The position numbers and the translations under genes are program-made. A model generated the notes under the pieces. The model searched no databases. It saw only the letters and a list, made by a program, of their open reading frames with translations, and had not been told where the DNA came from. Source: a virus (lineage: Duplodnaviria > Caudoviricetes). Taken from it: a stretch of DNA of 53,953 nucleotides. The DNA lies in the IMG/VR virus record IMGVR_UViG_3300005573_000115, positions 1 to 53,953 of that record; one strand, 5' to 3'. Shown in pieces: positions 2,797-43,232 of the stretch. How positions within the stretch are numbered: the first letter of the stretch is position 1; the number at the start of each line of letters is the position of its first letter.

Positions 2797-5700
2797 CTAT
2801 CGAACTCCCGAGGCACGATGGACGGGAGCGGGAACCCTGACCGTGACCTTCTTCTTGGATCGAGTGGGGTTGATCGTCAGATGGATTCCCTTATAATAGC
2901 GAGCGACCTCGTTGGCGTACTCCACGGCGCTTCTAACGGCGGTAGCGCTGTTTCCTGGGTGGCCGCTGAACCCTCCCATCTGAGCGAAGTACGCCGCCCA
3001 CCAGATGCCAGGCTCCGTGACGACTTGGCTGCCGCCCATGAATCGAGACAGGACTGGAGAGGACGACGAGACTCTGTAAGAGATCATCTTACCAGCTTTT
3101 GGAAGAAGTTCCAGAGCCTTCTGGTAGTCGTAACTGGGCCCTCTGTTGTGACTTAGGAAGGTCATGAGGGAACCCAATCCCTGGGTGAGATTTCCGACCT
3201 GCTCATAGCCCTTTCCCACCCCTTTGAACCCCAGACCGTAGGGGTTGGGGTTGCTCGGGGTGAATGAGGCGGTGTTCGGATTGGACTGATAGCGGAAGCC
3301 CGTCTCCTTGTCGCCCCATGCGATGAACGCCTTGGCGAGTTGCACGTTCCCGTGGGCGGCGGCCAGGGCGTCTTTGGAGAGCGTGGACATGCCGACAGAG
3401 CCGCCGCCGGTCTTGAAGGCCCCGGCAGTAGGGTAGTTCAGAGGCGGCACCGAGCTTTGAGGGATCTGATTGATGGAGGTCTCATAGTTTCCGTGGTAGA
3501 GAGTGCTCTTGTTGTAGCCCTCTTTACCGGCGATGAAGTTGACGGCGCTCAGGATGCCTTGGCCGATCTGGATCATTGTGTTCTGCCATTCGATCTGCTT
3601 CTGCTGGACGTTCTGCGCGGGAGTCAGAAACTGACCGCTATGGCGTTTGATATAGGACTCCAGATCCGTGATGCCTTTGGCGATCTGTCGATTCGACAGG
3701 TTTTCGCTGGCGATCTGCGTGAGGGTTCCAACACCTGTGAGATTGGGGTTCTGCCCTGTGAGCTGGTACACCTGGGTGGCGGCCGACTTAAGCATCGAGG
3801 CGGCGGCCCTGCTTTTGCCCCCGCTCAGATCGGAGGAGGCACCATAGAGATAGGAGAACACGCCCAGAGCCGATTCAGGAGCGGCCACCAGACCTTTGCC
3901 CATGCTCTGCACCTGCTGGATGGCCCTGGTGAACATATTGCTCGCCATGCCGGGGTTTTGGGAGTAGAGCTTCAGAAGAGCCGCCGACTGAGACAGGGAC
4001 AGCGCCCCGTTCGTCATGTTCGAGAGCAGGTTCTCAGCCAACCCGCCGGTGTTGCTCGTGGGGGTGAACGAGTACGCCGCCCCGCTGAAGTCGCTAGGCT
4101 TCACACCGAGGGACTTGACGAGACCTCCCAGGTAGAGTGAGATATTGGGGACTCCCGTGCCTCCCAGGGATTTGGGCATTGTGAAGTACGGACCAGCCTG
4201 CGCTGAGGCCAGTGTCTGCCACAGATTGAGCTTTCCGGTGGGGTTCAGAAGCCGAAAGTTCAGAAGTTGCCCGGCGGCTCCCAGACCGGGGTTTGCCATT
4301 CCCTGGGCGATGCCCTGCATGATGCTGGCCCCGTTCTGACCCATGAAAGCCTGGAGGCCCGTGGCGTTCAGCGCCGTCTGGACGCCCAGAATGTTCTTCC
4401 AGGGAACGCCCACAAGGGTCTGACCGACCTGCTGGGTCGCCGAGACGAGTGCCTGGAGGACTTCGCCCTGCCTGCCCTGCATCTGCGCGTCAGATACGGC
4501 GGCTCCGATCAGGTCGGCGAACTCCTTGGCGGTTACGTTCTGACCGTTGAACGCACCGGATTGAAACATCGAGCCGAACCCCTGGATCATCGACTGCCCT
4601 GACAAGCCCAGTCCAAGTCCGCCGGTCGTCAGCTGGGCGAGAGTCGGAAGGAGGGGCTTTCTGTTCCCGATGAGGGACCCCAGAAGATCGGCGTTTCCCG
4701 AGATCTGCTGCCAGTTCTCCACCGACTGAGCGCCGATGGCGTTGATGCGGTTGGTGAATTGGTTGGCCAGACTGTTCCCTCCGAGCATCCGGTAGGTGGG
4801 GGACAGAGAGACCCCCTCCAGAAGTCCGTTCTTCGCCCCCTGAATCATCTCACTTCCGACAGCGGTGAGGATGGCGTTTCCAATAATGCCCGCGATCCCG
4901 CCCAGCGCTCCCAGGAATCCCATCCCTGCACCGCCCGCTCCGGCGGCCATCTCTGCGGATGCGCCGATTCCCCCGGAGAGGGAAGGGAACAGGGAACCCA
5001 GGAGTCTAGATCCTGTGGAGAGCGCCAAAGAGCCCAGCTTCTGCCCCGGCGTATAGGTTCCGTTCTCTCCCGCCGGGGTCATGAGCTTGGTGTACGGAAA
5101 CGCCATGTAGGTGAGAGCGGCGGCTGTAGGAGCGCCTCGGTTGGTTCCCTTGACGTTCTGGATGAGAGCGTTCATGAAGCCCTCGGGGTTCTTCTGGTAC
5201 TGCTGGAGCACCGTTCCCTTGGGAGCCATAACTGTCATGGCCTGAACGATCATCTGGGAGAGTTCTTGAATGCTCTTATCCGCCAGGTTGATCTCTTCAG
5301 GGCTCTTGTTTCTCAGGCTTTCGATGCGGTTGCTGATGGCATCCGACAGTAGCAATAGCTCCTCGGGGGCTCCCCTTCTGCTGGCGGCCTGCCCGATGGC
5401 GCTGATCGCTCCCGAGAGCGATCCGCCTCCCATTCTGAGGAGGGTTTGAGCCCCGAGACTTCCGATGGCCTGAGTGCGGGGGTCATTCTCGGTGTAGCCC
5501 ATTCCCACCGCGTGCTGCTCCCACATCTGCGCCACCTTGCCCATGACGGGCTGGAGCAGATACTGCTCGTCGAGGAACTGATTGGGGCTCACTCCAGGCT
5601 GACCGGCGGCCACCTTTCCCGTTTTGGGGCTATACCTGCTCCCGATTTTGAGAAGGGACATCCGAAGTCTGGGGTCCACAGCTCCCATGCGAGCCTGCTC

Positions 5701-6402
5701 GAAGAACACCCGAGAGCGAGTTCGGGCGTCGCGAGCCGCCTGAATCGAGACGCGCTGCTCCCATGCCAGGTCGGCTTGCACTTTTCTGGCATGTGCGTTG
5801 TCCTCATTGGCTGTCCGGTTGATCTGAGCCGTCGCGTTTCGGATCTGCTCGCGCTCTTTGCGGGTGTTCTCTAGCTCCTGAGCCTTGCGAAATGCGTACC
5901 GCTTGTCGAGATGCTTCTCGTGAGCACGTGCGTTCCTCAGTTTTTCAACGTTTTCGGCGGCTGCGGCTCGTTTCGCCTCGGCCTTGGCTATAGCCTTGAT
6001 CTGCTTCGTCTCTTCGGGAGCCCGGAGGGTCTTTTGACGCTCCGCGTACTTGTCCCGGTTGGCGCTGATGCGGGCGCGCTCGGTCTTGCCCATGTCCTCC
6101 GCCACCTTGTCCACACCATACTTGGCCTGTGTGGCGGCGAATGTGGCGACAACTCCGATCATGGCCTTCTGGAAGTCAGGCCCCAGGTTGACCTTGGCCG
6201 TCTTGGGAATGCTCTTCTTGAGGTCGCGAGTGAGTTCGGCCATCCCCTTGTCGAAGATGGCCGTCATGCCAGATGCAAGGTTCTTCAGGGTGGAGTCCAG
6301 GGCTGACTTGAACTCCCCCAGCATCTGTCGGTTGTCGCTGGAGAGTTCCTGTTTGAGTTGACGCAGAAACTCTCGCATCTCATCGTTATCGGCCAAGAGC
6401 AT
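2797..6402 (-). CDS. Tape measure protein
   Basis: 1201 aa, charged helical N-terminus, Ala/Gly-rich middle, downstream of tail chaperones. Confidence 0.8.
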   Translation of the reverse strand: MLLADNDEMREFLRQLKQELSSDNRQMLGEFKSALDSTLKNLASGMTAIFDKGMAELTRDLKKSIPKTAKVNLGPDFQKAMIGVVATFAATQAKYGVDKVAEDMGKTERARISANRDKYAERQKTLRAPEETKQIKAIAKAEAKRAAAAENVEKLRNARAHEKHLDKRYAFRKAQELENTRKEREQIRNATAQINRTANEDNAHARKVQADLAWEQRVSIQAARDARTRSRVFFEQARMGAVDPRLRMSLLKIGSRYSPKTGKVAAGQPGVSPNQFLDEQYLLQPVMGKVAQMWEQHAVGMGYTENDPRTQAIGSLGAQTLLRMGGGSLSGAISAIGQAASRRGAPEELLLLSDAISNRIESLRNKSPEEINLADKSIQELSQMIVQAMTVMAPKGTVLQQYQKNPEGFMNALIQNVKGTNRGAPTAAALTYMAFPYTKLMTPAGENGTYTPGQKLGSLALSTGSRLLGSLFPSLSGGIGASAEMAAGAGGAGMGFLGALGGIAGIIGNAILTAVGSEMIQGAKNGLLEGVSLSPTYRMLGGNSLANQFTNRINAIGAQSVENWQQISGNADLLGSLIGNRKPLLPTLAQLTTGGLGLGLSGQSMIQGFGSMFQSGAFNGQNVTAKEFADLIGAAVSDAQMQGRQGEVLQALVSATQQVGQTLVGVPWKNILGVQTALNATGLQAFMGQNGASIMQGIAQGMANPGLGAAGQLLNFRLLNPTGKLNLWQTLASAQAGPYFTMPKSLGGTGVPNISLYLGGLVKSLGVKPSDFSGAAYSFTPTSNTGGLAENLLSNMTNGALSLSQSAALLKLYSQNPGMASNMFTRAIQQVQSMGKGLVAAPESALGVFSYLYGASSDLSGGKSRAAASMLKSAATQVYQLTGQNPNLTGVGTLTQIASENLSNRQIAKGITDLESYIKRHSGQFLTPAQNVQQKQIEWQNTMIQIGQGILSAVNFIAGKEGYNKSTLYHGNYETSINQIPQSSVPPLNYPTAGAFKTGGGSVGMSTLSKDALAAAHGNVQLAKAFIAWGDKETGFRYQSNPNTASFTPSNPNPYGLGFKGVGKGYEQVGNLTQGLGSLMTFLSHNRGPSYDYQKALELLPKAGKMISYRVSSSSPVLSRFMGGSQVVTEPGIWWAAYFAQMGGFSGHPGNSATAVRSAVEYANEVARYYKGIHLTINPTRSKKKVTVRVPAPVHRASGVR

Positions 6403-6757
6403 CCTCCTTTCTCCTCACAGCCTCGGCGATGATCTCATCCAGAGAGTTGGAGTCGGACTCCACGAAGGCTCTCTGGAGGTCGTCGAACGACACATAGGTG
6501 AAATCCCCGGATCTTTCGATGTCCCTCTCTCGCATCTCCAGCTCTTTCGGGTCGGGCTGCGGAATCCGCTCGCCGAAGTTCAGAATCCGGTTGGCCTTGG
6601 CGATCATCGCGGCCTCGAACACCAGTTCGGGATAGGTGTATTCTAGGATGCGGGGATCTCCTCTGGGGATTCGGTAGTGATAGCGGACGATGAACTCTGG
6701 GTCGTAGACTGAGAGCGATTCCCAATCATCATGAAGAAGACTGAACTTCTTCTCGAA
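6386..6757 (-). CDS. Tail assembly chaperone, frameshifted C-terminal (gpT-like) part
   Basis: The +1 frame is open from the TCC TTT CGA site through PEFIVRYHYRIPRGDPRILEYT to the stop at 6386, with no evident SD of its own. Confidence 0.7.
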   Translation of the reverse strand, partial: FEKKFSLLHDDWESLSVYDPEFIVRYHYRIPRGDPRILEYTYPELVFEAAMIAKANRILNFGERIPQPDPKELEMRERDIERSGDFTYVSFDDLQRAFVESDSNSLDEIIAEAVRRKEDALGR

Positions 6758-7067
6758 AGGAATTGGTGAACTTCACCCATCTTTCGTAGATGTCCAGGAA
6801 CAGGGCGCTGTCGGCATTGTCCAGGAAACTGAACCCGTCAGGCTTCTCGACGGCGGCGGCGTCCAGGATGGATGCAATCTCTAGCTCCAATGCCAAGTCA
6901 GCGTCGTCCCGCTTCAGGTCCTCCACAGACTGGTAGCCGCATTCCTTGACCTTATCCCGCAGGGCGGCGGTGGCCTTCAATCTTTTGGCCGGAGACAGAA
7001 GTTTGAACACGAATTTTCCCTTGGGGGAGTCGTACTCAAACCGTTCCTTCTCTTCAAGGATGTCCAC
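6729..7067 (-). CDS. Tail assembly chaperone (gpG-like)
   Basis: 112 aa between tube and tape measure, SD GAGGAGG, ends ..FTNSFR.. Confidence 0.75.
   Translation of the reverse strand: MDILEEKERFEYDSPKGKFVFKLLSPAKRLKATAALRDKVKECGYQSVEDLKRDDADLALELEIASILDAAAVEKPDGFSFLDNADSALFLDIYERWVKFTNSFREEVQSSS
6753..6761 (-). promoter_or_regulatory. Putative +1 programmed ribosomal frameshift site UCC_UUU_CGA
   Basis: Motif at the chaperone 3' end joins two overlapping open frames. Confidence 0.7.
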
Positions 7068-7150
7068 GAAATCTTTCCTCCTCTTCGGTTCTGAAGACAG
7101 GCAGGGAGGAGAACATAAGTTCTCCTCCTAGCCTCCCTTCGATGTGGTGT

Positions 7151-7696
7151 TTACGAGATGGCGAAAGAGCCTGATGTCTCGGTGCCCTGGAAGGTCACGT
7201 CCCATGTGACCGGGTTGTGGGCGGAGACGTTGAGGGTCCCGTTCTGATAGAGACAGTTCGATACCCTGCGGAGAACCGATCCAGTCGGACGGTCCATGAT
7301 CTCGATGGAGAACGTGTTCATCCCGAGTAAGTCCAGAAGCTCCTGCGGTGCGATTCCCAGAGACTCATAGGACTGGGACTTCACCCCGTTGAACCGCAAG
7401 GCGGTGTCGGTAAGCGACACCGATACGGTGGCAAGCCCTGGAGAATACTGCTGGACTCGGTTGTCCCCGATGCCCGAGTTCGCCTGAAGTCCGGCGTCCA
7501 TCGAGATGGTGGCACTCTGTCCCAACCCGACGTAATAGACCTGCTGACCGTTGGTGATCTTGGCATTCGGATTCGGATTTGAGGGGATGAGCATCGACAC
7601 GATGACGATGTTTCCGGTGTAGACCTGGACCTGCCCGTTGGAGTAGGGAGTCTGGATCGACATCGGCTGTCCGTTGGTATATGTGTCCTGTGCCAG
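7151..7696 (-). CDS. Tail tube protein
   Basis: YTGNIV..VGLGQS..GIGD..; follows sheath; probable start CTG 7696 behind SD AGGAGGG (first ATG at 7663). Confidence 0.8.
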   Translation of the reverse strand: MAQDTYTNGQPMSIQTPYSNGQVQVYTGNIVIVSMLIPSNPNPNAKITNGQQVYYVGLGQSATISMDAGLQANSGIGDNRVQQYSPGLATVSVSLTDTALRFNGVKSQSYESLGIAPQELLDLLGMNTFSIEIMDRPTGSVLRRVSNCLYQNGTLNVSAHNPVTWDVTFQGTETSGSFAIS

Positions 7697-33946: not shown

Positions 33947-34600
33947 ATGGCCAAGATGAAGATGCAGGGTAAAGCGTCAGAGACGCCTAGGCTCAGTACG
34001 CCAACGGCTACTGAGCCGTCTCCAACGAAGATCGACAGTATGCAGGCTAAGCCTGCAACGCTAGAGGCCAGAAGCGGGCATGATCCCGCTAAAAGGCCCT
34101 GGAAGTCCCTCATCAGTTACACCTACCGGCCTATGGGCTCTTTCCCCATAGGCCCCCAGGGTTTCCTTCCGCTCCCCACTCGGGGGACGAAGGAAGCTTA
34201 CGGCGTGACCGGAACGACGCTCCTCCGGGCGCTTCTCGAAGCCCGAGAGGAAGTCGTCCTAACCTCACTCGTAGGGGATCCCCAGCCTGACGGGGATTCC
34301 CTACAAGACGTCCTCACGTTGGCGGCATCGTCGACGGCATCGACGTGGTTGATCTATACCAAGCCGGGGGCTCTCGCGAGAGCCAAGGACAGACTGGCGT
34401 CCGGGTCCTGGGACGCCGTCGTCCGTAAGGTCACGGCCGCAGGTTGGGCCGTGCACCGGCAGTCAGGAGAAAACCGGCAGCTCCTTCGGGAGCTGTTCGA
34501 AAAGGCCATTGCAGAAGGCCGGCCCGTCAGCGAAGGCCGCGATGCGGCTGACGCTGACGACGCTGATGAGGAAGAGGAGGAGGAGGAAGCAGAGGAGTAG
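33947..34600 (+). CDS. Hypothetical early protein with acidic C-terminal tail
   Basis: SD GGGAGGGG; ends DAADADDADEEEEEEEAEE. Confidence 0.75.
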   Translation: MAKMKMQGKASETPRLSTPTATEPSPTKIDSMQAKPATLEARSGHDPAKRPWKSLISYTYRPMGSFPIGPQGFLPLPTRGTKEAYGVTGTTLLRALLEAREEVVLTSLVGDPQPDGDSLQDVLTLAASSTASTWLIYTKPGALARAKDRLASGSWDAVVRKVTAAGWAVHRQSGENRQLLRELFEKAIAEGRPVSEGRDAADADDADEEEEEEEAEE

Positions 34601-34627
34601 CCTCTGCTCCCTCTCCCGTATCCTGCA

Positions 34628-34675
34628 GAGGATCCCTGAGACGGAATCTCAGGGATCCTCCTTTTTTTGGGAGGG
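34628..34675 (+). terminator. Hairpin + U-tract + SD unit
   Basis: 14-bp stem GAGGATCCCTGAGA/TCTCAGGGATCCTC, T7, GGGAGGG. Confidence 0.8.
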
Positions 34676-34682
34676 ATGCCGT

Positions 34683-34898
34683 ATGACGAAGACACTGGGA
34701 TCATGCTCATTGGGGACCATATCCGCCGTTGGTGAGAAATTTCAACTCACTACCAGGGGCGGTAACAGCCTCCTTCTGACGAAGGAGGAACTTTCGGAAA
34801 TGCTTCTCTGGGCAATCGCCCAGAGAGAAAAGGAGCAGGAGATAAGACTACAACTTCCCACGGCATATGTGGCAAGTATGGTCCGTCTAGGATTCTGA
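34683..34898 (+). CDS. Hypothetical protein
   Basis: ATG 34683 behind SD. Confidence 0.6.
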   Translation: MTKTLGSCSLGTISAVGEKFQLTTRGGNSLLLTKEELSEMLLWAIAQREKEQEIRLQLPTAYVASMVRLGF

Positions 34899-34914
34899 CG
34901 CCTTCGGTTGCTCT

Positions 34915-34964
34915 GGAATCCCGAAGAACGAATTCTTCGGGATTCCTCTTTTTTTTGGAGGTGA
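34915..34964 (+). terminator. Hairpin + U-tract + SD unit
   Basis: 14-bp stem, T8, GGAGGTGA. Confidence 0.8.
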
Positions 34965-34969
34965 TGTCC

Positions 34970-35257
34970 ATGTCGTACAATGGCTGGACGAATCGCGAGA
35001 CCTGGGCCGTAGATCTCTGGCTCACAGATGAGCCGGGGAGAGTTCCTGACATAGAGGTTGCTCCCGATCCCGACAGTCTTCAGGAATATGTCGAGGATCT
35101 GTGGGAAGACTTCCGCAGATACGTGGCAGACCTGTGGAAGAAGTCAGTCGGTTCGTCGCATGGCGATTGGGTCGCCGACATGATCGACGACGCATTCGTC
35201 TATTGGGATAAAATCAACTGGGAGGAGATTCACAAAAACCTCTACAGCACCTTCTAA
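34970..35257 (+). CDS. Conserved phage protein (YNGWTNRETW family)
   Basis: MSYNGWTNRETWAVDLW...INWEEI. Confidence 0.75.
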   Translation: MSYNGWTNRETWAVDLWLTDEPGRVPDIEVAPDPDSLQEYVEDLWEDFRRYVADLWKKSVGSSHGDWVADMIDDAFVYWDKINWEEIHKNLYSTF

Positions 35258-35273
35258 AATCCGACTCTTGGTT

Positions 35274-35328
35274 AGAGAAACCCTCGAAGGGATTGCAACT
35301 TCGAGGGTTCTCTTTTTTTTGGAGGTGA
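35274..35328 (+). terminator. Hairpin + U-tract + SD unit
   Basis: AACCCTCGAAG/CTTCGAGGGTT stem, T8, GGAGGTGA. Confidence 0.8.
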
Positions 35329-35332
35329 GAAA

Positions 35333-36001
35333 ATGGAGAGGTATTCTCGTCAGGACGTAGACGGCAAGGCCGTCTATGTCACCTCGTCCCGGAACGGGGC
35401 GTGGGGTGCTTATCCCCACGCCATCGAAGAGGATCCCTGGGTCATACCGACGCGGATAGAGCGTCGATATGACCCCACATGGGATCCGTGGCTACCAGAG
35501 CCGCAGATCACGGCCACCCACGCCCTGGGCCTCGCCCACGGGCACGAGTGGGCAAGCATCCTCGGGCGAAACCCGTCCTTTCCGAAGGACGGTCTGTCCG
35601 CCTGGAATCTGGCGGGCAAGATCGAGATTACATGTAAAGGAAGAGGCTACACTCCTTCCTGGCAGGACCCGGAAGCCATTACGGGCATTCGGTTTCCCGA
35701 TCTTGTCCCTTATTGGCGTGGGGGTGCGATGCACATCCATCGCACCGCCACCGGCCGCCTCCGATGGGCAGTGATGCCCTCGGGGACGGCATACATCGCC
35801 GTGTACCGACCAGAGGGGCTCGCCCTCGCCGCCCGCGTCGGCTCCTCGTCCCGCCTGATCTACGTCGCGTACACGGACGTTCCCGTGTACGCGCGCCACG
35901 TAGGAGCCCTCCGTTATGCACTAGGAGCGTTAGGAGCGCTCGATGGTGAGCCGGATCTCACCGAGGCGGTACCAGTCCTTGGCGAAACATCTACGCGCTA
36001 G
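35333..36001 (+). CDS. Hypothetical protein
   Basis: 222 aa, strong SD. Confidence 0.7.
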   Translation: MERYSRQDVDGKAVYVTSSRNGAWGAYPHAIEEDPWVIPTRIERRYDPTWDPWLPEPQITATHALGLAHGHEWASILGRNPSFPKDGLSAWNLAGKIEITCKGRGYTPSWQDPEAITGIRFPDLVPYWRGGAMHIHRTATGRLRWAVMPSGTAYIAVYRPEGLALAARVGSSSRLIYVAYTDVPVYARHVGALRYALGALGALDGEPDLTEAVPVLGETSTR

Positions 36002-36019
36002 GCGGTATACGCCTAGCCC

Positions 36020-36083
36020 CACCTCCACAAAAAACGAAGCCTCGGAGAATTCGATCTCCGAGGCTTCGTTTTTTGTGGAGGTG
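36020..36083 (+). terminator. Perfect 29-bp inverted repeat covering U-tract and SD
   Basis: CACCTCCACAAAAAACGAAGCCTCGGAGA-ATTCGA-reverse complement. Confidence 0.85.
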
Positions 36084-36089
36084 AAATGG

Positions 36090-36332
36090 ATGGATAGCAT
36101 CTTGAGACCCACTCCGAAAAGGAGACCAATCATCGTGTCTCTATTCAACCCCGCTCACGAAAAACCGCGCTATGTGGTTTTCAAGGGCGGCAGATTCATC
36201 GTCTTCGGGGAGGGCGCGGTCGGCGGCGTTCCCGCCCTCCTGTGTGGGAGCGGATCCAGCAGTTTCTGGATCCGCCGGGAAGACGCCACCTTCGTCAAGC
36301 CGGGGACGGAGGCTTGGGACGCTCTCGGCTAG
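36090..36332 (+). CDS. Hypothetical protein
   Basis: ATG behind GGAGGTG. Confidence 0.6.
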   Translation: MDSILRPTPKRRPIIVSLFNPAHEKPRYVVFKGGRFIVFGEGAVGGVPALLCGSGSSSFWIRREDATFVKPGTEAWDALG

Positions 36333-36342
36333 GGAACCTCGT

Positions 36343-36392
36343 GAGGATCCTGGGAGGTTGCCCCTCCCAGGATCCTCTTTTTTTGGAGGTGA
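36343..36392 (+). terminator. Hairpin + U-tract + SD unit
   Basis: GAGGATCCTGGGAGG/CCTCCCAGGATCCTC, T7, GGAGGTGA. Confidence 0.8.
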
Positions 36393-36396
36393 AATT

Positions 36397-36528
36397 GTGA
36401 CAGAGATGCAGGTTTACGCTTCCGTGGAAGCGTATTTCGTGCTTTTGGCGGTCATCGTGATCGGAGCATATTTCCTGTCGGCGCTGGAAAATGCGCTGAC
36501 TCACCGAAGAAAGAAGCGCCAAAAGTGA
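36397..36528 (+). CDS. Small single-pass membrane protein
   Basis: YFVLLAVIVIGAYFL followed by RRKKRQK. Confidence 0.6.
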   Translation: MTEMQVYASVEAYFVLLAVIVIGAYFLSALENALTHRRKKRQK

Positions 36529-36532
36529 GCAC

Positions 36533-36575
36533 AAGAGGAGAGGGTTTCAACCCTCTCCTCTTTTTTTGGAGGTGA
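36533..36575 (+). terminator. Hairpin + U-tract + SD unit
   Basis: AAGAGGAGAGGGT/ACCCTCTCCTCTT stem, T-run, GGAGGTGA. Confidence 0.8.
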
Positions 36576-36581
36576 TGTTCC

Positions 36582-37145
36582 ATGGATAATGTGGTTTACG
36601 AGTTCGAGGAAGGCCACCGACGACTCCTGATTCTCTACGACGAGTTCCCCCCAAACCCCCAAACTGAGTTCTCGAATCTGGGAACGATGGTGTGTGGTCA
36701 TAGGCGATACATACTGGGGAACGAGCAGGTCTCCTCCGCGGAGGAGATGAACGAGAGGATTCGAGCGCTCCCGAAGGGAAGTCTCGTACTTCCTCTTTAC
36801 CTCTACGATCACTCGGGCGTGGTGATGCAGACAAGGGGATTCTCCGAGATCGACTCTCACGGGTGGGACTGGGGATGCGTAGGATTCGTGTACGCCACCC
36901 CCGAGAAGATCCGGGAGAGTTACATGGTCAAGCAAATCACCAAGAAGATTCGAGAGAGAGCCCAAAGCCTCTTGGAAAGTGAGGTGGAGACGTACAGCCA
37001 CTACCTTAACGGAGAGGTATACGGGTTCATCGCCTACGAAGACGGAGAGGAGGTGGATTCCTGCTGGGGGTTCTACGGGTGGGATTGGGATAAGAACGGG
37101 CTGACTGAACACCTGCCGGAAGAGTTCCGCCCGCTCCTTCACTGA
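36582..37145 (+). CDS. Conserved phage/MGE protein
   Basis: NLGTMVCGHRRY.LG, LPLYLYDHSG, YLNGEVYG, DSCWGFYG. Confidence 0.8.
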   Translation: MDNVVYEFEEGHRRLLILYDEFPPNPQTEFSNLGTMVCGHRRYILGNEQVSSAEEMNERIRALPKGSLVLPLYLYDHSGVVMQTRGFSEIDSHGWDWGCVGFVYATPEKIRESYMVKQITKKIRERAQSLLESEVETYSHYLNGEVYGFIAYEDGEEVDSCWGFYGWDWDKNGLTEHLPEEFRPLLH

Positions 37146-37160
37146 TCCCCATGTGTGAGT

Positions 37161-37213
37161 AGAGAGGGAGGGCATTTTACTATGCTCTCCCTCTCTGTAT
37201 TTTTGGAAGGGAG
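37161..37213 (+). terminator. Hairpin + U-tract + SD unit
   Basis: AGAGAGGGAGGGCAT/ATGCTCTCCCTCTCT, T-run, GGAAGGGAG. Confidence 0.7.
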
Positions 37214-37223
37214 ATGAGATTTC

Positions 37224-37335
37224 GAGAGCGGCTCCTACTCCTACGCTACACTCTTCGACGAGGTGGCGTACTGGCGGAAGGCTAACGCCGTCCACAGTTG
37301 GTTCATGATGCACGCCCAGGACAAGGAGACTTTTC
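37224..37335 (+). pseudogene. Fragment of a YWRKAN-motif phage protein
   Basis: LFDEVAYWRKANAVHSWFM, out of frame with the ATG following the SD, and truncated. Confidence 0.55.
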
Positions 37336-37369
37336 GGTCATCTTCCTCACTTTTTTTGGAGGTGATCCC

Positions 37370-37714
37370 ATGGAGAAGATCCGTGTTCTGGTCTTTCCGC
37401 AGGATGGGAGTGGGGTTCGGGAGGAAAAGATCGCGAACGACTGGAAGGAGATGCAGAAGATCGTAGGGGGGTTCTTCGAGGCCGTCTCTCTTCTGCCAGA
37501 GGGTTACACCCTCTACTGCAACGAAGATGGGCTCGCAGAGAACCTTCCTCCCAACCCTTACACCAGACTTCTGGGACGAGACATCGCTTCGATGGTGCTC
37601 TGCCCGGATGGCCATCATATCCTGGGCACCTTCTTCGTCTCAAAGGAGGACGAGGAAGGAGAGTCCGTATCCCTGACAGATGAGGACATTTCGTTCATTC
37701 TGTCGGACGCCTGA
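37370..37714 (+). CDS. DUF3846-like protein
   Basis: MQKIVGGFFEAV, LYCNEDG...LPPN, ILGTFFV, SLTDE. Confidence 0.8.
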   Translation: MEKIRVLVFPQDGSGVREEKIANDWKEMQKIVGGFFEAVSLLPEGYTLYCNEDGLAENLPPNPYTRLLGRDIASMVLCPDGHHILGTFFVSKEDEEGESVSLTDEDISFILSDA

Positions 37715-37732
37715 CATCCCAAGTCAGGCGAT

Positions 37733-37947
37733 AGCCCCCGGAGTTTTCTCCGGGGGCTCTCTTTTTTTTGAGGGGGTTTCCCCCTTTCACCTCCCAGGGA
37801 CACGGGAGGGGGCAGAGAATGCTCCCTCCCGTTCTTTGTTTGGTGGAGAAAAACCCAAGCGACTAGACGAGTCTCTAGTCTCTACGTTCCAGAAGAAGCC
37901 TCGCTCGAAACTCGGGCGGGGCTTCTCATTTTTCTGAAGGGAGGTGA
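37733..37947 (+). terminator. Cluster of at least three hairpin + U-tract units with no intervening gene
   Basis: AGCCCCCGGAG/CTCCGGGGGCT T8; GGGAGGGGGCA/TGCTCCCTCCC; GAAGCCTCGCTCG/CGGGCGGGGCTTC T5 GGGAGGTGA. Confidence 0.7.
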
Positions 37948-37952
37948 CAGAG

Positions 37953-38168
37953 ATGAAGGTGAGTTTGTTTAACCCCACCAGCGTCAAGACCGTCTTCTTC
38001 CCAGACCCAGAGATCTTCGCCGTCGTAAGGATGGAGAGTGATCGAGGATCAGTGGATGTGTTCATTGATTGTCCACAGTGGGAGGCCGCCGCTGAGATGT
38101 TGGAGAAGGCGGCGAGAGAGCTTCGTGCAGCCGCAGAGTCACATGCGGCGGAAGCGGTGGTCTCCTAG
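37953..38168 (+). CDS. Hypothetical protein
   Basis: ATG behind GGGAGGTG. Confidence 0.65.
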   Translation: MKVSLFNPTSVKTVFFPDPEIFAVVRMESDRGSVDVFIDCPQWEAAAEMLEKAARELRAAAESHAAEAVVS

Positions 38169-38298
38169 GTCTGACTGAGACGATGGTTTCGAGACAGGGA
38201 GGGGAGGACTTCGGTCCTCCCCTTTCTATTTAAGGAGGAGGTGATTCTAGAAACGCAGTCCCGTGACTGATACTTTTGGATGAGAGGAGCATGGTTGT

Positions 38299-38997
38299 GT
38301 GAGTCATTTTCTGACGGCGGTGATCTCCCGGTCGGGAAGCGAGGAGGAGACAAGAAACCTTCTCGCTCCGTTCGACGAGGGGATCGAGGTTGATCCCTAC
38401 GAGAAGCGATGCTGGTGCGTCGGATCCAAGGCACGTGCAGACGTGCTTGCGGAACTGGCGAAGACGATCGGCGTCTATGAGAATCTGGATGAGGCGTTCT
38501 GGAATTCTCATAGAGGGAAGATGGAGGAGGACCCTCTGTGGGCCTGTAGCACGGAAGCGCTACTGGAGCATCACAAATGGATGTCCGAGTTCGATCAGGC
38601 AAAGGAGCAGGCGCTTCTCCAGCATCCTCTGCGGAACGTCCCAGAAGCCGGATGCTCTCAGTGTCACGGGAGCGGAGTCTACGTGACGACCCAAAACCCA
38701 CGGAGCAAGTGGGACTGTTGGGAGATAGGAGGGCAGTTCAACGGGGAGATAACCGGACGACGGATCAGGCCGGACGTGGTTCGCATCGAGGACAACAGAG
38801 TCCCGGTTCCGATCATGCTGGAACTAGAGATCATTCCGTTCGCCCTGATCACGCCAGATGGAGAGTGGCACGAGAGAGGGTCCATGAGATGGTTCGGTCC
38901 GCCTCTCAATCTCAGAGACGACTGGCCGGACGAGGTGCGAAAAATCCTCTCGCAGCATCGAGAGTGCATCGCTGTGGGAGTGGACTGTCACATTTGA
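38299..38997 (+). CDS. Conserved phage protein with CxxCxGxG
   Basis: SHF..V, NPRSKWDCWEIGG, PFALITPDGEWHERG, VDCHI. Confidence 0.8.
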   Translation: MSHFLTAVISRSGSEEETRNLLAPFDEGIEVDPYEKRCWCVGSKARADVLAELAKTIGVYENLDEAFWNSHRGKMEEDPLWACSTEALLEHHKWMSEFDQAKEQALLQHPLRNVPEAGCSQCHGSGVYVTTQNPRSKWDCWEIGGQFNGEITGRRIRPDVVRIEDNRVPVPIMLELEIIPFALITPDGEWHERGSMRWFGPPLNLRDDWPDEVRKILSQHRECIAVGVDCHI

Positions 38998-39053
38998 GTG
39001 AGCGCCGCAAAGGAAGAGAGGATCATAGGGCACCACAAAAGGAGGAGATCGAG

Positions 39054-39560
39054 ATGCCCAAGTCCAAGTCCCAATTTGACCTTAGTGGAGCGCCGGAGGA
39101 CGTGGCGGCCTACTGCCGCCTCGCGTGGAAAAGGTCCTCACCGGCGGCGTATTCGATGTGGATTGATAGGATCCCGGAAATCATCCAGGCCCCTGCCCTC
39201 GCTGATGATCCCAATCGGCCTTATCGGATCGCCGACTGGGCGGTGAGGGAGGTGGCGGGAGTTAGGTGCGCGCCCATCATGGACGCGGCGACCGCACGGG
39301 CGGCCCGCGAAAAAGCAGACTACGCCGCCTCCTTCGCCCCTTCCGCCTCTGCCGAAGCCGTCTACACCGACGTCCGCTCCGCCGCCGCCCACGCCGCCGA
39401 CACATTTGCTACGCCCCCCGCCGCCGCCGCCGACATGTATGCTGCGTCCGTCGCCGCCTACAGAGCTGCCTCCTCTGCCGCTCACGCGGTGCGGCGCTCC
39501 CTGGAGCGTGACGCCCTCTTCCTGGAGGGCCTCGGCGTACTGCTAGGCCTTCCCGCCTGA
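39054..39560 (+). CDS. Ala-rich hypothetical protein, paralog A
   Basis: ATG behind GGAGGAG; aligns with 40296-40817 (PEDVAAYCR.AWK..PEI.QAP.LADDP.RP.RIADWA.R); TGA lies in ribozyme core. Confidence 0.75.
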   Translation: MPKSKSQFDLSGAPEDVAAYCRLAWKRSSPAAYSMWIDRIPEIIQAPALADDPNRPYRIADWAVREVAGVRCAPIMDAATARAAREKADYAASFAPSASAEAVYTDVRSAAAHAADTFATPPAAAADMYAASVAAYRAASSAAHAVRRSLERDALFLEGLGVLLGLPA

Positions 39561-39603
39561 CGAGGCCGGAAGGCCGAAACTCCCCGCAAGGGGAGTCGCG
39601 GGA
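39551..39603 (+). ncRNA. Type I hammerhead ribozyme
   Basis: TCCCGC-CTGACGA-GGCC(GGAA)GGCC-GAAA-CTCCCC(GCAA)GGGGAG-TC-GCGGGA: complete core, all three stems, GUC cleavage triplet 39595-39597. Confidence 0.92.
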
Positions 39604-39634
39604 TACCCGCAAGATTGAGGAGGAGGAGATCAGG

Positions 39635-40030
39635 ATGAAGTGTCAGCACCCTAGCATCCGAATCGTGCGGGAGGAGGCCTTCGTGGGCCCCTTGGGCGTC
39701 CTCGATGAAGAGCCTCGTGCTCACGGGGGAGTCCAAATTACTGAGCGGTGCGCCGACTGCGGAGCAGAACGCACCGTGAACGCAAATCAGGGGTTCCGCG
39801 AGGAAGGTCCCTGGGAGACGCAGGCGTACCGTCGCTTGGCGGACATTGGGGTCCACGTTCTGGGCGTCCAAGGTGGAATCGCCACCGTACAGTCGGGGCC
39901 GTTCCTCGAAAGGGTGACTGTGGCTTCCGTGCGGGCGGCTGCTCATCAGAGCGACGCCATGGCGGCTGCGATCTACCTCGATGTGATGGATCGCATCATG
40001 GAGCTGTCCGGTCCTCGAACGCGTCGGTAA
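39635..40030 (+). CDS. Hypothetical protein
   Basis: C.H...AHGGV...ERCADCGA.R..N.N...EEGPW; strong SD. Confidence 0.7.
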   Translation: MKCQHPSIRIVREEAFVGPLGVLDEEPRAHGGVQITERCADCGAERTVNANQGFREEGPWETQAYRRLADIGVHVLGVQGGIATVQSGPFLERVTVASVRAAAHQSDAMAAAIYLDVMDRIMELSGPRTRR

Positions 40031-40059
40031 ACGACAAGAAGAAGAAGGAGGAGATAGAT

Positions 40060-40272
40060 ATGATCCGTACCGAGTGCGCCGTGTGCTCCAGGGCCGGTCA
40101 GGACAACGCCGCCACACACATCGTGACATGGCACGATCCGCTCTTCCTGGGTGTATCCAGAGAAGAGCCAGTCTGTGGAGAGTGCGCACGGCAGGTTGGC
40201 GATCAGGGTACTGTGCGCCTTATGGGCGATTCCGGGGATGAGTGGGCAGGGGAGTCGCGGGATACCCGCTGA
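40060..40272 (+). CDS. Small zinc-binding protein
   Basis: CAVC...VCGEC; SD GGAGGAG. Confidence 0.6.
   Translation: MIRTECAVCSRAGQDNAATHIVTWHDPLFLGVSREEPVCGECARQVGDQGTVRLMGDSGDEWAGESRDTR
40248..40269 (+). repeat. 3' half of the hammerhead unit
   Basis: AGGGGAGTCGCGGGATACCCGC is identical to the two full copies. Confidence 0.85.
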
Positions 40273-40295
40273 TCCGAAAGAAGGAGGAGATCAGG

Positions 40296-40817
40296 ATGAC
40301 CCAGTTCCAGTATTCCGAACTTTACTTGAACTTGATTGGAGTGCCGGAGGACGTGGCGGCTTATTGTCGTCACGCGTGGAAAAAGTCCTCATCGGTGGCG
40401 CATTCTCGGTGGAAAGAGCGGAACCCGGAAATCGTCCAGGCTCCGAAGTTGGCCGATGATCCGGGGCGGCCCTTCCGCATTGCTGATTGGGCCATGAGGC
40501 GGGTGGCAATAGTCTTCTCTGCTCCCCCCATCGTAGACATACAGAGCGCATGGGCGGCCATCGAAGAAGCGAGATACAGAGGCTCCTTCGGCCTTTCCGC
40601 CCGGGGCGAAGCCGTCCACAGAGCTGCCTGCTCCGCCGCCGCCCACGCCGCCGACACATTTGCTACGCCCCCCGCCGCCGCCGCCGACATGTATGCTGCG
40701 TCCGTCGCCGCCTACAAAGCTGCCTCCTGCGCCGCTCAAGCGGTGCGGAGCGGACCGAAGCGTGATGCCCTTTTGTTGGATGGCCTCAATGTACTGCTAA
40801 ACTCACGCCACGCCTGA
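40296..40817 (+). CDS. Ala-rich hypothetical protein, paralog B
   Basis: Paralog of 39054-39560; TGA lies in ribozyme core. Confidence 0.75.
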   Translation: MTQFQYSELYLNLIGVPEDVAAYCRHAWKKSSSVAHSRWKERNPEIVQAPKLADDPGRPFRIADWAMRRVAIVFSAPPIVDIQSAWAAIEEARYRGSFGLSARGEAVHRAACSAAAHAADTFATPPAAAADMYAASVAAYKAASCAAQAVRSGPKRDALLLDGLNVLLNSRHA

Positions 40818-40860
40818 CGAGCCCGGAAGGGCGAAACTCCCCGCAAGGGGAGTCGCGGGA
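40809..40860 (+). ncRNA. Type I hammerhead ribozyme, second copy (short stem I)
   Basis: CGC-CTGACGA-GCCC(GGAA)GGGC-GAAA-CTCCCC(GCAA)GGGGAG-TC-GCG; compensatory stem II change; GUC 40852-40854. Confidence 0.85.
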
Positions 40861-40883
40861 TACCCGCAAAGGAGGAGATCAAA

Positions 40884-41552
40884 ATGTCCAATTTCCAGTC
40901 CCAGCCGCTACTTGCATGGCACTTTCTACGAAAAGGCGGCGTCACACGCGACGGGCAAACCGTCACGGTGGGGAGCCGTATGCACGTGAACCCCCCTGTG
41001 ATCATGGGCGAGCGCGAGCTTCACGCATCACTCAGGCTGCTCGACGCCCTGCGCTACACGTCGTTTAGTCCAGTCGCGTGCCGAGTTCGCATGAGTGGCG
41101 AGATCATCAAGGGATCAGACAAAATCGTCGCCACCGACCGAGAGGTGCTGGCAATGGTGGACGCGACCAAAATTCTCCATGAGTTTGCCTGCGTGGTGGC
41201 GGAGGAAGCCCTGCAAAAGGCGGGGGTTACTGACAAACGCTCTTGGAATGTCATCGCTTTGAAAAGGCGTTGGCTGTCTGGCGATGATAATGACAGGGAA
41301 TTCTCAGCGGCTAAGGCGGCGGCTAGGGAGGCGGCTGAGGCGGATTGGCGGGTGGATAGGAAAGCTAGCGCGTCTAGGGCGGCTAAGGCGGCGGCTAAGG
41401 CGGCGGTTTGGGCGGCGGATTTGGCGGCTGAGTCGGCGGCTTTTGAGGCGGTCAGCTCGGTTTTGGAGGGGTTTCGGGGGGAGGAGTTTGAGGCAGAACG
41501 TTCTCGCCTCAACGACATTCTCACGCGGATGGTCGAGGAGGCGCTGTTGTGA
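40884..41552 (+). CDS. Conserved phage protein with Ala-rich helical C-terminus
   Basis: LAWHF, LHAS..LDALRY, ILHEFAC, KRRWL.G. Confidence 0.75.
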   Translation: MSNFQSQPLLAWHFLRKGGVTRDGQTVTVGSRMHVNPPVIMGERELHASLRLLDALRYTSFSPVACRVRMSGEIIKGSDKIVATDREVLAMVDATKILHEFACVVAEEALQKAGVTDKRSWNVIALKRRWLSGDDNDREFSAAKAAAREAAEADWRVDRKASASRAAKAAAKAAVWAADLAAESAAFEAVSSVLEGFRGEEFEAERSRLNDILTRMVEEALL

Positions 41553-41986
41553 GGCGTGCCTTTTTCGTCCGACGGGAACCTTCCGTTGACGCCGCCCAAG
41601 CGTCACTGGAACGGGGGCGTAGCGTGCGCTCTTGGAGTGCGTATGGAATGTGTGCCCACGTCCTGCAAGACTGGGCGGAGGACGGCCTTGTGCCGCCCCT
41701 CTGTGAGGCGGAGGAAGTCCCGCCCCTGAGCGGGGATAACGACCGCCGCTGTGCGAGATGTAGGCTTGAGGATGCTCCGGCCTACGCGCACTTCCTGCCC
41801 GGCCTTTGCGCCATCGCCGAGGGCGACGATGCAGATGAGGCCCTAGAGATGGGCATCCGAGGGTCTACTTACGACTGGCTCCCAGTGCTGGCTCTTTTCG
41901 AGGGCGAGGAGGTGGGCACGGATCCTGACGAAGGATGGACCTTGTTTCGGCCTACGCGTCTCTTGTGGGCACGCGAGTATGAGTGA
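41549..41986 (+). CDS. Hypothetical protein
   Basis: GTGA overlap; GLCA, LFEG..VG.DPDEG..LFRP. Confidence 0.6.
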   Translation: MRRAFFVRREPSVDAAQASLERGRSVRSWSAYGMCAHVLQDWAEDGLVPPLCEAEEVPPLSGDNDRRCARCRLEDAPAYAHFLPGLCAIAEGDDADEALEMGIRGSTYDWLPVLALFEGEEVGTDPDEGWTLFRPTRLLWAREYE

Positions 41987-42077: not shown

Positions 42078-43232
42078 GTGCCATCCAGTTTCGGATCAAA
42101 AGAGTCAAAGGAGGTTCCACCATTGTCAGTTTCTGTTGCCGAAGTGCCCATCGCCGTGGAGGCGTCTGCTTTGAGAAAGGCGCTGGACGCCCTGAAGCCC
42201 CTTGTCGATAGCCGCACCTACATTGACGAGATGGAGTGCATCCTCATCAAGTCGAACGAGAATCGCACCGCTCTGAGCCTGAGCGCCACGAACGGGGACT
42301 GTGGAGCCACCATCACAATTCCGGCCCGTGTCTCAAAGGACATCGAGGTGCTGGTGACAGCAGAGCAGTTCCGATCCGTCATCCCCAAGACCGGGGGCGT
42401 GATGATTCGTACCCTCGAAGACGCTCTGGAGGTGTTGAACGATCTTGGTACCTTCCAGTGCAAAACTAAGGCCCCGGAGGGGACCTTCTGGAAACAGCCC
42501 GAGTGTGATACACCTCCTTCCATGACGATCCGCTCTGAGGAGTGGGATCGCATCGGGAAGATCACCCAACGCTATCAGCAGAGCAGGAAGGAGTATGCGC
42601 TTCCGGTGCTGGCGGGTGTTCACGTCGTCGTCGAAAACGGTCAGGTACACGTCGAGGCCAGCGACAATTTCCGACTCGTCAGCATTCTGGCAGGAGCCGA
42701 GGAGGTTGCGAAGACTCCGGGCAGGATCGACAAGGTGGTCTCGGATTGGAGCCGTCTCACAAAGGTGATCATGCATGGGGGCGAGACGGCGACGGTCTTC
42801 CTGACGGATCATCACATGATCGTCAGAACGGAAGGCAGCACCGCCTGGAGCGTCTACAGGGAAGGAGTCTTCCCGCAGAGCGAGCGACTGTTTGACAAGC
42901 CCTACGAGAGCAGAGGAGTGGTGCCGGACGCCGTTCGGAAGAACGCGTTGAAGAAGCTTCGTCTCACGAAGGCGTTCGTGGAGGATCGCAAGCACCCCAA
43001 GGTCTGCGTCCGTGTGGCGGACGGCGACATCGCGGTGTCGGTCGAAGATGTCGCGAAGGAGCAGTTCGAGAGCGAGGGATGGATCTGCCTGAATCCCAAT
43101 TTCCTGGCGGACGCCCTGGAATCCCTGGACAATCTGGAGTGGAGTCAGATAGGACCCACCAGCCCGATCCAAATCACCTCCGGTTCGGTGAAGGCGCTTG
43201 TTCTCCCGATTAAGCCCTTCTGGATGGCGTAG
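42078..43232 (+). CDS. dnaN: DNA polymerase III beta sliding clamp-like protein
   Basis: LSATN, PVLAGVH, EASDNFRL, GVFP, LNPNFLADAL, SPIQI, ALVLPIK. Confidence 0.75.
   Translation: MPSSFGSKESKEVPPLSVSVAEVPIAVEASALRKALDALKPLVDSRTYIDEMECILIKSNENRTALSLSATNGDCGATITIPARVSKDIEVLVTAEQFRSVIPKTGGVMIRTLEDALEVLNDLGTFQCKTKAPEGTFWKQPECDTPPSMTIRSEEWDRIGKITQRYQQSRKEYALPVLAGVHVVVENGQVHVEASDNFRLVSILAGAEEVAKTPGRIDKVVSDWSRLTKVIMHGGETATVFLTDHHMIVRTEGSTAWSVYREGVFPQSERLFDKPYESRGVVPDAVRKNALKKLRLTKAFVEDRKHPKVCVRVADGDIAVSVEDVAKEQFESEGWICLNPNFLADALESLDNLEWSQIGPTSPIQITSGSVKALVLPIKPFWMA

Follow-up and report, generated by a model that had tools for sequence, protein, structure and literature searches.

Hammerhead ribozyme motifs at gene junctions of a phage sequence from a hot-spring metagenome

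What kind of junction separates the genes of a small plus-strand block in a tailed-phage genome where the strong terminator hairpins of the neighbouring block are absent? The DNA analysed here is the virus record IMGVR_UViG_3300005573_000115 (Duplodnaviria; Caudoviricetes) at its full length of 53,953 bases, called the window in the following, which has 59.7% G+C and is estimated to be 63% complete. The element in question is a sequence of 22 bases, AGGGGAGTCGCGGGATACCCGC (the 22-mer), which is present three times within a run of five genes named here A1, B, C, A2 and D, where A1 and A2 are two versions of one gene, A. A first-pass annotation had described this run as a second cassette system in which ribozyme units replace terminator hairpins as junctions and act as recombination points. 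Our answer is that, judged by sequence, two of the three copies belong to genuine hammerhead motifs, which are of a known kind and stand in a known arrangement. That they are type I self-cleaving ribozymes in a co-directional early operon, cutting the polycistronic messenger RNA (mRNA) just after gene A, is the reading which we prefer, with a probability of about 0.7 on the analysis given below. Only four things go beyond the ordinary, namely a stop codon inside the catalytic core, a hairpin that shares a strand with stem I, a relic copy and the thermophilic source.

The 22-mer has three exact plus-strand matches (beginning at 39589, 40248 and 40846) and was found in none of 100 dinucleotide shuffles. 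At the first and the last of these positions it is part of a full unit, which runs as CCCGC or CACGC, then CUGACGA, then GGCC-GGAA-GGCC or GCCC-GGAA-GGGC, then GAA, then ACUCCCC-GCAA-GGGGAGU, then C and, past the cut, GCGGG-AUA-CCCGC. The invariant core of the type I hammerhead is complete in both units, that is CUGANGA (with C as N7), G12-A13-A14, the A15.1-U16.1 pair and C17. Both copies carry the GUC cleavage triplet, stems II and III are capped by GNRA tetraloops, and stem I is open and is formed by the last bases of gene A paired with GCGGG beyond the cut site. The contiguous pairs of stems I, II and III number 6, 4 and 7 in copy 1 and 3, 4 and 7 in copy 2, whose stem I has three contiguous pairs, a mismatch (A.G) and one pair more. 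A scan of both strands of the window for the full core with three helices gave only these two sites, with cores at 39557 and 40814, and the same kind of hammerhead descriptor gave nine sites in total over 300 dinucleotide shuffles, none of them matching the weaker real copy in strength. A type II or type III hammerhead, with the hairpin taken as a closed stem I, was considered and rejected because there is no CUGANGA 3' of the hairpin. The parts of the two units are given below (all on the plus strand), with scores in bits under R1, a covariance model built from seven copies of the motif.

39551..39610, plus strand: hammerhead 1, type I, 78.1 bits with R1
39551-39556: stem I 5' strand of hammerhead 1
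39557-39563: core CUGACGA
39564-39575: stem II, GGCC-GGAA-GGCC
39576-39578: GAA
39579-39596: stem III
39597: C17
39597 / 39598: predicted cut of hammerhead 1
39598-39610: GCGGG-AUA-CCCGC
40809..40867, plus strand: hammerhead 2, type I, 75.1 bits with R1
40809-40813: stem I 5' strand of hammerhead 2, CACGC
40814-40820: core
40821-40832: stem II, GCCC-GGAA-GGGC
40833-40835: GAA
40836-40853: stem III
40854: C17
40854 / 40855: predicted cut of hammerhead 2
40855-40867: hairpin

The two ribozymes are direct repeats lying 1,257 nucleotides (nt) apart. Their 59-nt units differ at two positions only, and these two make a compensatory swap of G-C for C-G in one pair of stem II; the coding sequence flanking the units is 62-68% identical. 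The end of the gene is contained in the motif itself, as positions 2.2-2.1-C3 of hammerhead 1 are the last codon of A1 (GCC) and U4-G5-A6 its stop (TGA), and the TGA of A2 is likewise U4-G5-A6 in the core of hammerhead 2.

Relatives of the motif were searched in metagenomes, genomes and viral contigs. Pattern scans gave type I hammerheads with an identical stem III in five viral contigs, and two metagenome-assembled genomes, G001 (two copies 615 nt apart) and G002 (four copies), gave copies that share stem I and the hairpin with the window, in phage-like regions of 41-44% G+C; when the hairpin was dropped from the pattern, the viral contigs L115, L116 and L117 were added. The pattern GGGGAGTCGCGGGNNNCCCGC gave 45 loci without any hammerhead in the metagenome scan, and 50 loci with 51 matches in the genome scan, six of them hammerheads (two in L069 and one each in L077, L085, L092 and L095), its other matches being chance in GC-rich DNA. 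With filters off, R1 gave no copy in the window beyond the two, the remaining 22-mer reaching 10.4 bits at an E-value (E) of 0.7, and it found 24 motifs in 13 sources. Across these 24 motifs 97.3% of the cells hold standard pairs and both sides have changed in 12 of the 16 pairs, figures to be read with the fact that an alignment fitted to R1 favours the structure; none of 500 shuffles reached any of the measures and slid controls were at most 58% paired. All of the 24 aligned relatives keep A-U and C-G as the first two pairs of stem III.

The position of the relatives with respect to genes is equally regular. Every one of the 23 complete motifs lies at the end of a long upstream open reading frame (ORF) or no more than 33 nt 3' of it, and most of them have the start codon of a further ORF within about 90 nt. 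A stop codon serving as U4-G5-A6 is found in three of the 23, the two copies of the window and that of viral contig L002. Between two and five copies per contig, spaced by one or a few genes, are present in L003, L115, L116, L117, G001 and G002. Five hammerheads are placed within 3.1 kb of L003 (6190-9285), with a small GGG(A)...(U)CCC hairpin directly after four of them, and the other multi-copy viral contigs are L116 (three copies, 1631-2843), L115 (three, 5003-7235) and L117 (12080-12904). The near-identical GC-rich copies of G002 lie at L085 73-150, L113 7341-7417 and 16841-16897 and L114 9348-9432, and those of G001 at L112 5238-5933. In the low-GC relatives a tail GUCCC after stem I is complementary, when read by eye, to loop II (GGGAC or GGAC), and by this complementarity a pseudoknot is possible.

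None of the genes beside the relatives' ribozymes showed likeness to A, B, C or D, and one window protein of 571 amino acids (aa) from the replication region has distant relatives in L116 and L117. The first-pass annotation had allowed that the motif might go only with this one duplicated gene and never with other cargo. Within this genome both whole ribozymes do follow gene A; outside it that restriction does not hold, because the same lineage adjoins unrelated genes in other phage-like contigs. The exact 22-mer had no match in the viral contigs, a blastn search of 38900-41600 had none in the phage collection, no relative of A1, the sliding clamp or the A-like protein P0004 (the last two described below) was confirmed in the viral contigs, and no close kin of the phage was found in the viral contigs or the phage collection searched.

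The genes joined by these units, and the leaders before them, are as follows.

39041..39053, plus strand: leader of gene A1, GGAGGAGAT and 4 nt, its first G 13 nt from the ATG, an apparent extended Shine-Dalgarno sequence
39054..39560, plus strand: gene A1, 168 aa, orphan, Ala-rich protein
39622..39634, plus strand: leader of gene B, GGAGGAGATCAGG then ATG
39635..40030, plus strand: gene B, 131 aa, no family match
40047..40059, plus strand: leader of gene C, GGAGGAGATAGAT then ATG
40060..40272, plus strand: gene C, 70 aa, orphan, two CxxC pairs, with the 22-mer as its last 8 codons
40248..40269, plus strand: third copy of the 22-mer (stem III 3' strand, GUC and hairpin only), R1 10.4 bits, E 0.7
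40283..40295, plus strand: leader of gene A2, where GGAGGAGATCAGGATGA recurs unchanged from the leader and start of gene B (repeat family with flanks, 20/21)
40296..40817, plus strand: gene A2, 173 aa, paralogue of A1 (65% identical)
40871..40883, plus strand: leader of gene D
40884..41552, plus strand: gene D, 222 aa, DUF7666 / Imm5-like on weak evidence

In the 53,953 bases GGAGGAGAT occurs nine times on the plus strand. Five consecutive copies (39041, 39622, 40047, 40283 and 40871) each stand exactly 13 nt 5' of an ATG which opens an ORF (A1, B, C, A2 and D, of 168, 131, 70, 173 and 222 aa), just as the first-pass annotation had claimed for five consecutive genes, and the remaining four (35221, 36740, 46590 and 51290) have no start codon behind them. 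GGAGGAGAT is one base off GGAGGTGAT, which we take to be the full complement of the anti-Shine-Dalgarno tail at the 3' end of bacterial 16S ribosomal RNA, and it is likewise one base from the form GGAGGTGA found upstream. By its sequence the common leader is an extended Shine-Dalgarno, or ribosome-binding site, and no novel signal. The earlier remark that it differs from the units upstream also holds good. In 34957-37940 seven GGAGGTGA sites precede start codons and a T-run comes directly before six of them; eight strong terminator-like hairpins lie in 34628-37926 against none in 39000-41500, and a terminator scan of 39000-41600 gives weak matches of 5 pairs only. The two leader types GGAGGAGAT and GGAGGTGA thus mark truly distinct blocks. 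The small plus-strand genes upstream (34600-38240) show a strong hairpin, a T-run and then directly GGAGGTGA with a start codon, for example at 34915-34970, 36343-36400 and 36533-36585.

The idea that ribozymes take the place of terminators as junctions stands in part. The motifs are real, they lie between co-directional genes and the block has no strong terminators, but a whole ribozyme is present at only two of the five junctions (A1|B and A2|D), with a relic at C|A2 and nothing before A1 or between B and C. On the preferred reading, transcription would pass through A1-B-C-A2-D without strong terminators, and each ribozyme would fold from the end of gene A, the core containing the UGA, two GNRA-capped hairpins and the GCGGG past the cut. 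By the predicted cuts, which fall after C39597 and C40854, the message of gene A would be parted from the downstream RNA. The upstream product would then have two stable hairpins and a 2',3'-cyclic phosphate at its end, and the downstream product would start with a 5'-OH, its first 13 nt (GCGGG-AUA-CCCGC) snapping into a hairpin that lies 2 to 11 nt before the Shine-Dalgarno of the next gene. As a consequence mRNA stability or translation may differ between gene A and its neighbours. The third 22-mer would be a truncated, non-catalytic remnant of a junction, and the GGAGGAGAT leader would have been copied together with the junctions.

This third copy has neither CUGANGA nor GAAA 5' of the 22-mer. 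It supplies the last 8 codons of gene C, with the TGA stop directly 3' of the hairpin, so the description of it as lacking the catalytic half and being read as the end of an ORF was confirmed (ORF C, 40060-40272). We take it for the non-catalytic remains of a junction, because the catalytic half is missing and the sequence encodes the last eight residues of gene C. Two other ideas about it were considered. The first, a decayed full ribozyme, was rejected, as 765 of 2000 shuffles reach its score and, when its preceding 46 nt are compared with the 5' half of the ribozyme, 1254 of 2000 random 46-mers of the window score equally. The second is cleavage in trans or by a separate enzyme strand, but no further CUGANGA-hairpin-GAA with ACUCCCC behind it is present in the window, and the full copies retain their own substrate strand in the closed stem III.

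Other traces of repetition surround the junctions. The 22-mer and GGAGGAGATCAGGATGA precede both B and A2 (20/21 with flanks), so that B-C is bracketed by direct repeats of the two (39589-39610 with 39622-39638, and 40248-40269 with 40283-40299), and A2 has a 22-mer on either side. In the third copy the resemblance breaks off sharply at the 5' end of the 22-mer, to resume downstream at the leader. A block of 86 nt is perfectly identical in A1 (39377-39462) and A2 (40631-40716), the rest of the two genes being about 57-85% identical in 40-nt windows. Since it stands amid an identity of roughly 70%, the block points to a recent exchange between the A1 and A2 units, and its identity suggests a recent gene conversion, or else a nucleotide sequence that is itself under constraint. 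Gene D begins much as A1 does, its leader and first seven codons (40868-40903) being 83% identical (30/36) to the same part of A1 (39038-39073), and this looks like a chimeric start of gene D from recombination in the leader. We take these repeats as traces of recombination or duplication in which the junctions took part; they lend plausibility to the recombination points of the first-pass annotation but do not prove them.

The alternative which survives best is built on these traces and says that the ribozyme 3' half, the hairpin and the leader serve as homology tracts for the duplication, insertion or swap of cassettes, the half ribozyme being a scar. We consider this rather unlikely as the main explanation of the junctions, and it is compatible with a working ribozyme. 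The bracketing of B-C and of A2, the abrupt stop of likeness in the third copy, the resemblance of the D and A1 starts and the 86-nt block all favour it, and so do the unrelated genes which adjoin the ribozyme lineage elsewhere and the G002 contigs that end inside copies; the PeSL cassettes of T4-type phages give a precedent (PMC2839356, in the part cited here). Against it speak the assembled contigs from two hot-spring DNA runs, in which cassettes are never skipped or exchanged at a joint and the repeats are only places of breakage, as is usual in assemblies (run X2 being uncovered over 39400-41100), and no close phage relative was found with which cassette content could be compared. Selection on a working ribozyme would account for the identity of the RNA elements just as well, in view of the compensatory pair of stem II, and 22 bases are short for homologous recombination. 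Two of the G002 contigs terminate inside a ribozyme copy, where the assembly probably broke at the repeats.

Several results weigh against working ribozymes and give room to a second alternative, in which the RNA is inactive or only structural, with mainly competing folds whose stable hairpins would protect mRNA ends or pause ribosomes or RNases. In energy terms the minimum-energy fold is not the active fold in either copy. For copy 1 it has -38.6 kcal/mol against -31.2 for the active fold at 37 C, and in it the end of gene A is paired with stem II and the core. For copy 2 the hairpin form (-30.1 kcal/mol) beats the active one (-23.5), its stem I having no more than three contiguous pairs. In copy 1 the active and hairpin forms are near each other, at -31.2 and -30.1 kcal/mol at 37 C and at -17.1 and -14.6 at 65 C. 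All of these calculations ignore tertiary contacts and ribosomes. Fast cleavage of a hammerhead at physiological Mg2+ requires that stem I make a tertiary contact with loop II. No obvious tertiary contact is seen; loop II of the window copies is a GGAA tetraloop with at most 2 bases complementary to the tail, and since this tetraloop is bare the loop II-tail pairing of the relatives is unavailable to them. The same holds for the comparison with Rfam, where a whole-window search at gathering thresholds gave no match. Hammerhead_1 (RF00163) gave 14 bits for copy 2 against a threshold of 34 and did not report copy 1, Hammerhead_II (RF02276) gave 18.9 and 16.7 bits against 37, and a permissive search of 39400-41000 gave weak Hammerhead_II and chance matches only.

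A control shows how the Rfam result is to be taken. Among 14 full-core hammerheads in nine loci (two of the 14 being the window copies) none attained a gathering score and only four had any sub-threshold match, one of these at 15.9 bits on Hammerhead_1; the hammerheads of L003, L115, L116 and L117 are likewise all below it. No copy in the window reaches the gathering score, yet the score is weak as a criterion, because the models are insensitive to the lineage, as the 0/14 of the control indicates. The inactive alternative is further opposed by the core bases, all intact in both copies despite surrounding genes at 65% protein identity, and by the relatives, in which the core is conserved and each of the three stems shows covariation; a function of the hairpin alone would not preserve CUGANGA and GAAA. 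We consider it improbable that the units are inactive. Less probable still is the release, by double cleavage, of a B-C-A2 RNA (39598-40854) whose ends would rebuild one hammerhead and might be ligated into a circle as in retrozymes or viroid-like satellites. It is conceivable because the two ribozymes, as direct repeats spaced 1,257 nt apart, agree throughout their 3' halves (22/22), a geometry that follows from the sequence, and because Perreault et al. raised spliced or circular products for clustered phage hammerheads. By the same account they were unable to detect them (PMC3088659, in the part cited here), the stem I of copy 2 by which the circle would be closed is the weaker one, and for B, C and A2 themselves, which have ordinary ribosome-binding sites, no circle is needed.

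Within the preferred reading of cleaving ribozymes, the hairpin after the cut deserves separate treatment. GCGGG is complementary both to the upstream CCCGC, with which it forms the active stem I, and to the downstream CCCGC, with which it forms the hairpin. In searches which did not require it, a hairpin of 4-5 pairs was present in 2/2 copies of the window, 3/3 of L116, 1/2 of L117 and 0/3 of L115, and for the six complete copies of G001 and G002 its presence was a condition of the search. In the GC-rich contigs with the hairpin, AAGGAGG and a start codon come directly after it, and it persists alone in the relic copy. These observations allow the stronger but unlikely idea that in a sub-lineage of hammerheads the hairpin serves as an inbuilt switch for strand exchange, in which GCGGG pairs with the CCCGC of the gene end and flips downstream after cleavage, so that cleavage is coupled to the termination of A translation. 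The active stem I would be exposed only when no ribosome occupies the UGA stop inside the core, and the flip would make the cut irreversible and leave a leader with a 5'-OH and a hairpin cap directly before the Shine-Dalgarno. If true, the synthetic RiboJ insulator would have a counterpart in nature.

Comparable arrangements are known from several systems. In phage T7, RNase III sites between early genes cut the long early transcript into mRNAs, each with a protective hairpin at its end. The likeness lies in intergenic RNA structures that split an early transcript, and the difference in that T7 needs a host enzyme, whereas the RNA of the window would cut itself.

The nearest system is that of the clustered hammerheads of Perreault et al. 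(2011, PMC3088659; Rfam clan CL00010). In the part of that work cited here, prophages are described as often having multiple hammerheads that flank a single gene or a short block of genes, the genes differing from case to case. The role suggested there is that long phage transcripts are processed to mRNAs of operon or gene length, and three tandem arrangements were shown to cleave in vitro and one to cleave in E. coli. Pseudoknots of loop II are also described, with which the loop II-tail complementarity of our low-GC relatives agrees (PMC3088659). The arrangement in the window is no novel system; hammerheads clustered around phage genes were described in 2011. The window shares with that set a full core, clustered copies between co-directional phage genes and variable neighbours. 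It differs from it in that its copies are below every Rfam gathering score, the upstream stop is U4-G5-A6 of the core, neither loop II nor loop III is more than a GNRA tetraloop, the 3' strand of stem I doubles as the 5' arm of the hairpin and the source is a hot-spring metagenome.

The RAGATH-1 hammerhead (RF03152) is also a type I variant with an extra hairpin, but according to the Rfam consensus this hairpin is 5' of stem I and stem II is minimal; the phage copies of L003 and L005 match it weakly (28-34 bits against a cut-off of 56.3) and the window copies do not match it at E <= 10. RiboJ, which is the sTRSV hammerhead with a 23-nt hairpin, has by the cited account a hammerhead and then a hairpin just 5' of the ribosome-binding site (PMC8794103), and the resemblance is one of working only. 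It was engineered from a type III ribozyme of a plant satellite and its hairpin is separate from stem I, whereas that of the window shares the 3' strand of stem I and is thereby in competition with the active fold. The PeSL cassettes of T4-type phages (Arbiol et al. 2010, PMC2839356; Comeau et al. 2014, PMC4122927) are similar in having short repeated regulatory motifs which bracket small non-essential early genes and are possible recombination points. A PeSL consists of a promoter and a terminator, and recombination between PeSLs was shown experimentally (PMC2839356), whereas the junctions of the window have no evident promoter, their repeated element is a part of a ribozyme, and no recombination product was seen in the contigs of the two DNA runs. 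The upstream hairpin, T-run and GGAGGTGA units (34600-38240) are nearer to the PeSL type than the ribozyme units are.

As for the setting, large genes occupy the minus strand over roughly 750-33,000 and a long run of genes the plus strand over 33,000-53,900. The module sits in the plus-strand block just 5' of a DNA polymerase III beta-like sliding clamp (42078-43232), which matches Pfam PF00712 (38 bits) and phrog_947. The public runs containing the module stretch are two DNA runs only, both labelled hot springs metagenome, and no RNA run contains it. A contig of 79,730 bases was listed for A1, A2 and C in the protein search, and because of this contig and the completeness of 63% the window is probably a fragment of a larger phage genome, so that more ribozyme copies may lie beyond it.

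The cargo genes are mostly orphans. A1/A2 and C have no relatives beyond themselves in a search of 5.8 billion proteins, and an exhaustive profile search gave one distant relative of A, P0004 (E 1.7e-21), which comes without genomic context. A1 has a weak Atlas lead to Imm5-like phage proteins (score 0.86), and D resembles DUF7666 / Imm5-like proteins in its Atlas features (0.96), in its structure (TM 0.79) and, below the cut-off of 27, in Pfam (22.2 bits). The A1 and D proteins show no sequence likeness to each other. The Imm5-like matches of A1 and D are weak and are leads rather than assignments; the module may encode diversifying immunity-like accessory proteins.

The Rfam hammerhead models overlook a whole phage lineage, of which 14 full-core examples are sub-threshold. 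A review of 2019 stated, in the part cited here, that the purpose of bacterial and phage hammerheads needs more work to be defined (PMC6765202). The locus, which is otherwise one further example of a well-known class, is a compact test case for that purpose, having a near-identical pair of ribozymes, a stop codon in the core and a competing hairpin before the next ribosome-binding site, and its natural half copy is usable as an internal non-cleaving control. In their thermophilic setting these short GC-rich ribozymes may also be useful parts.

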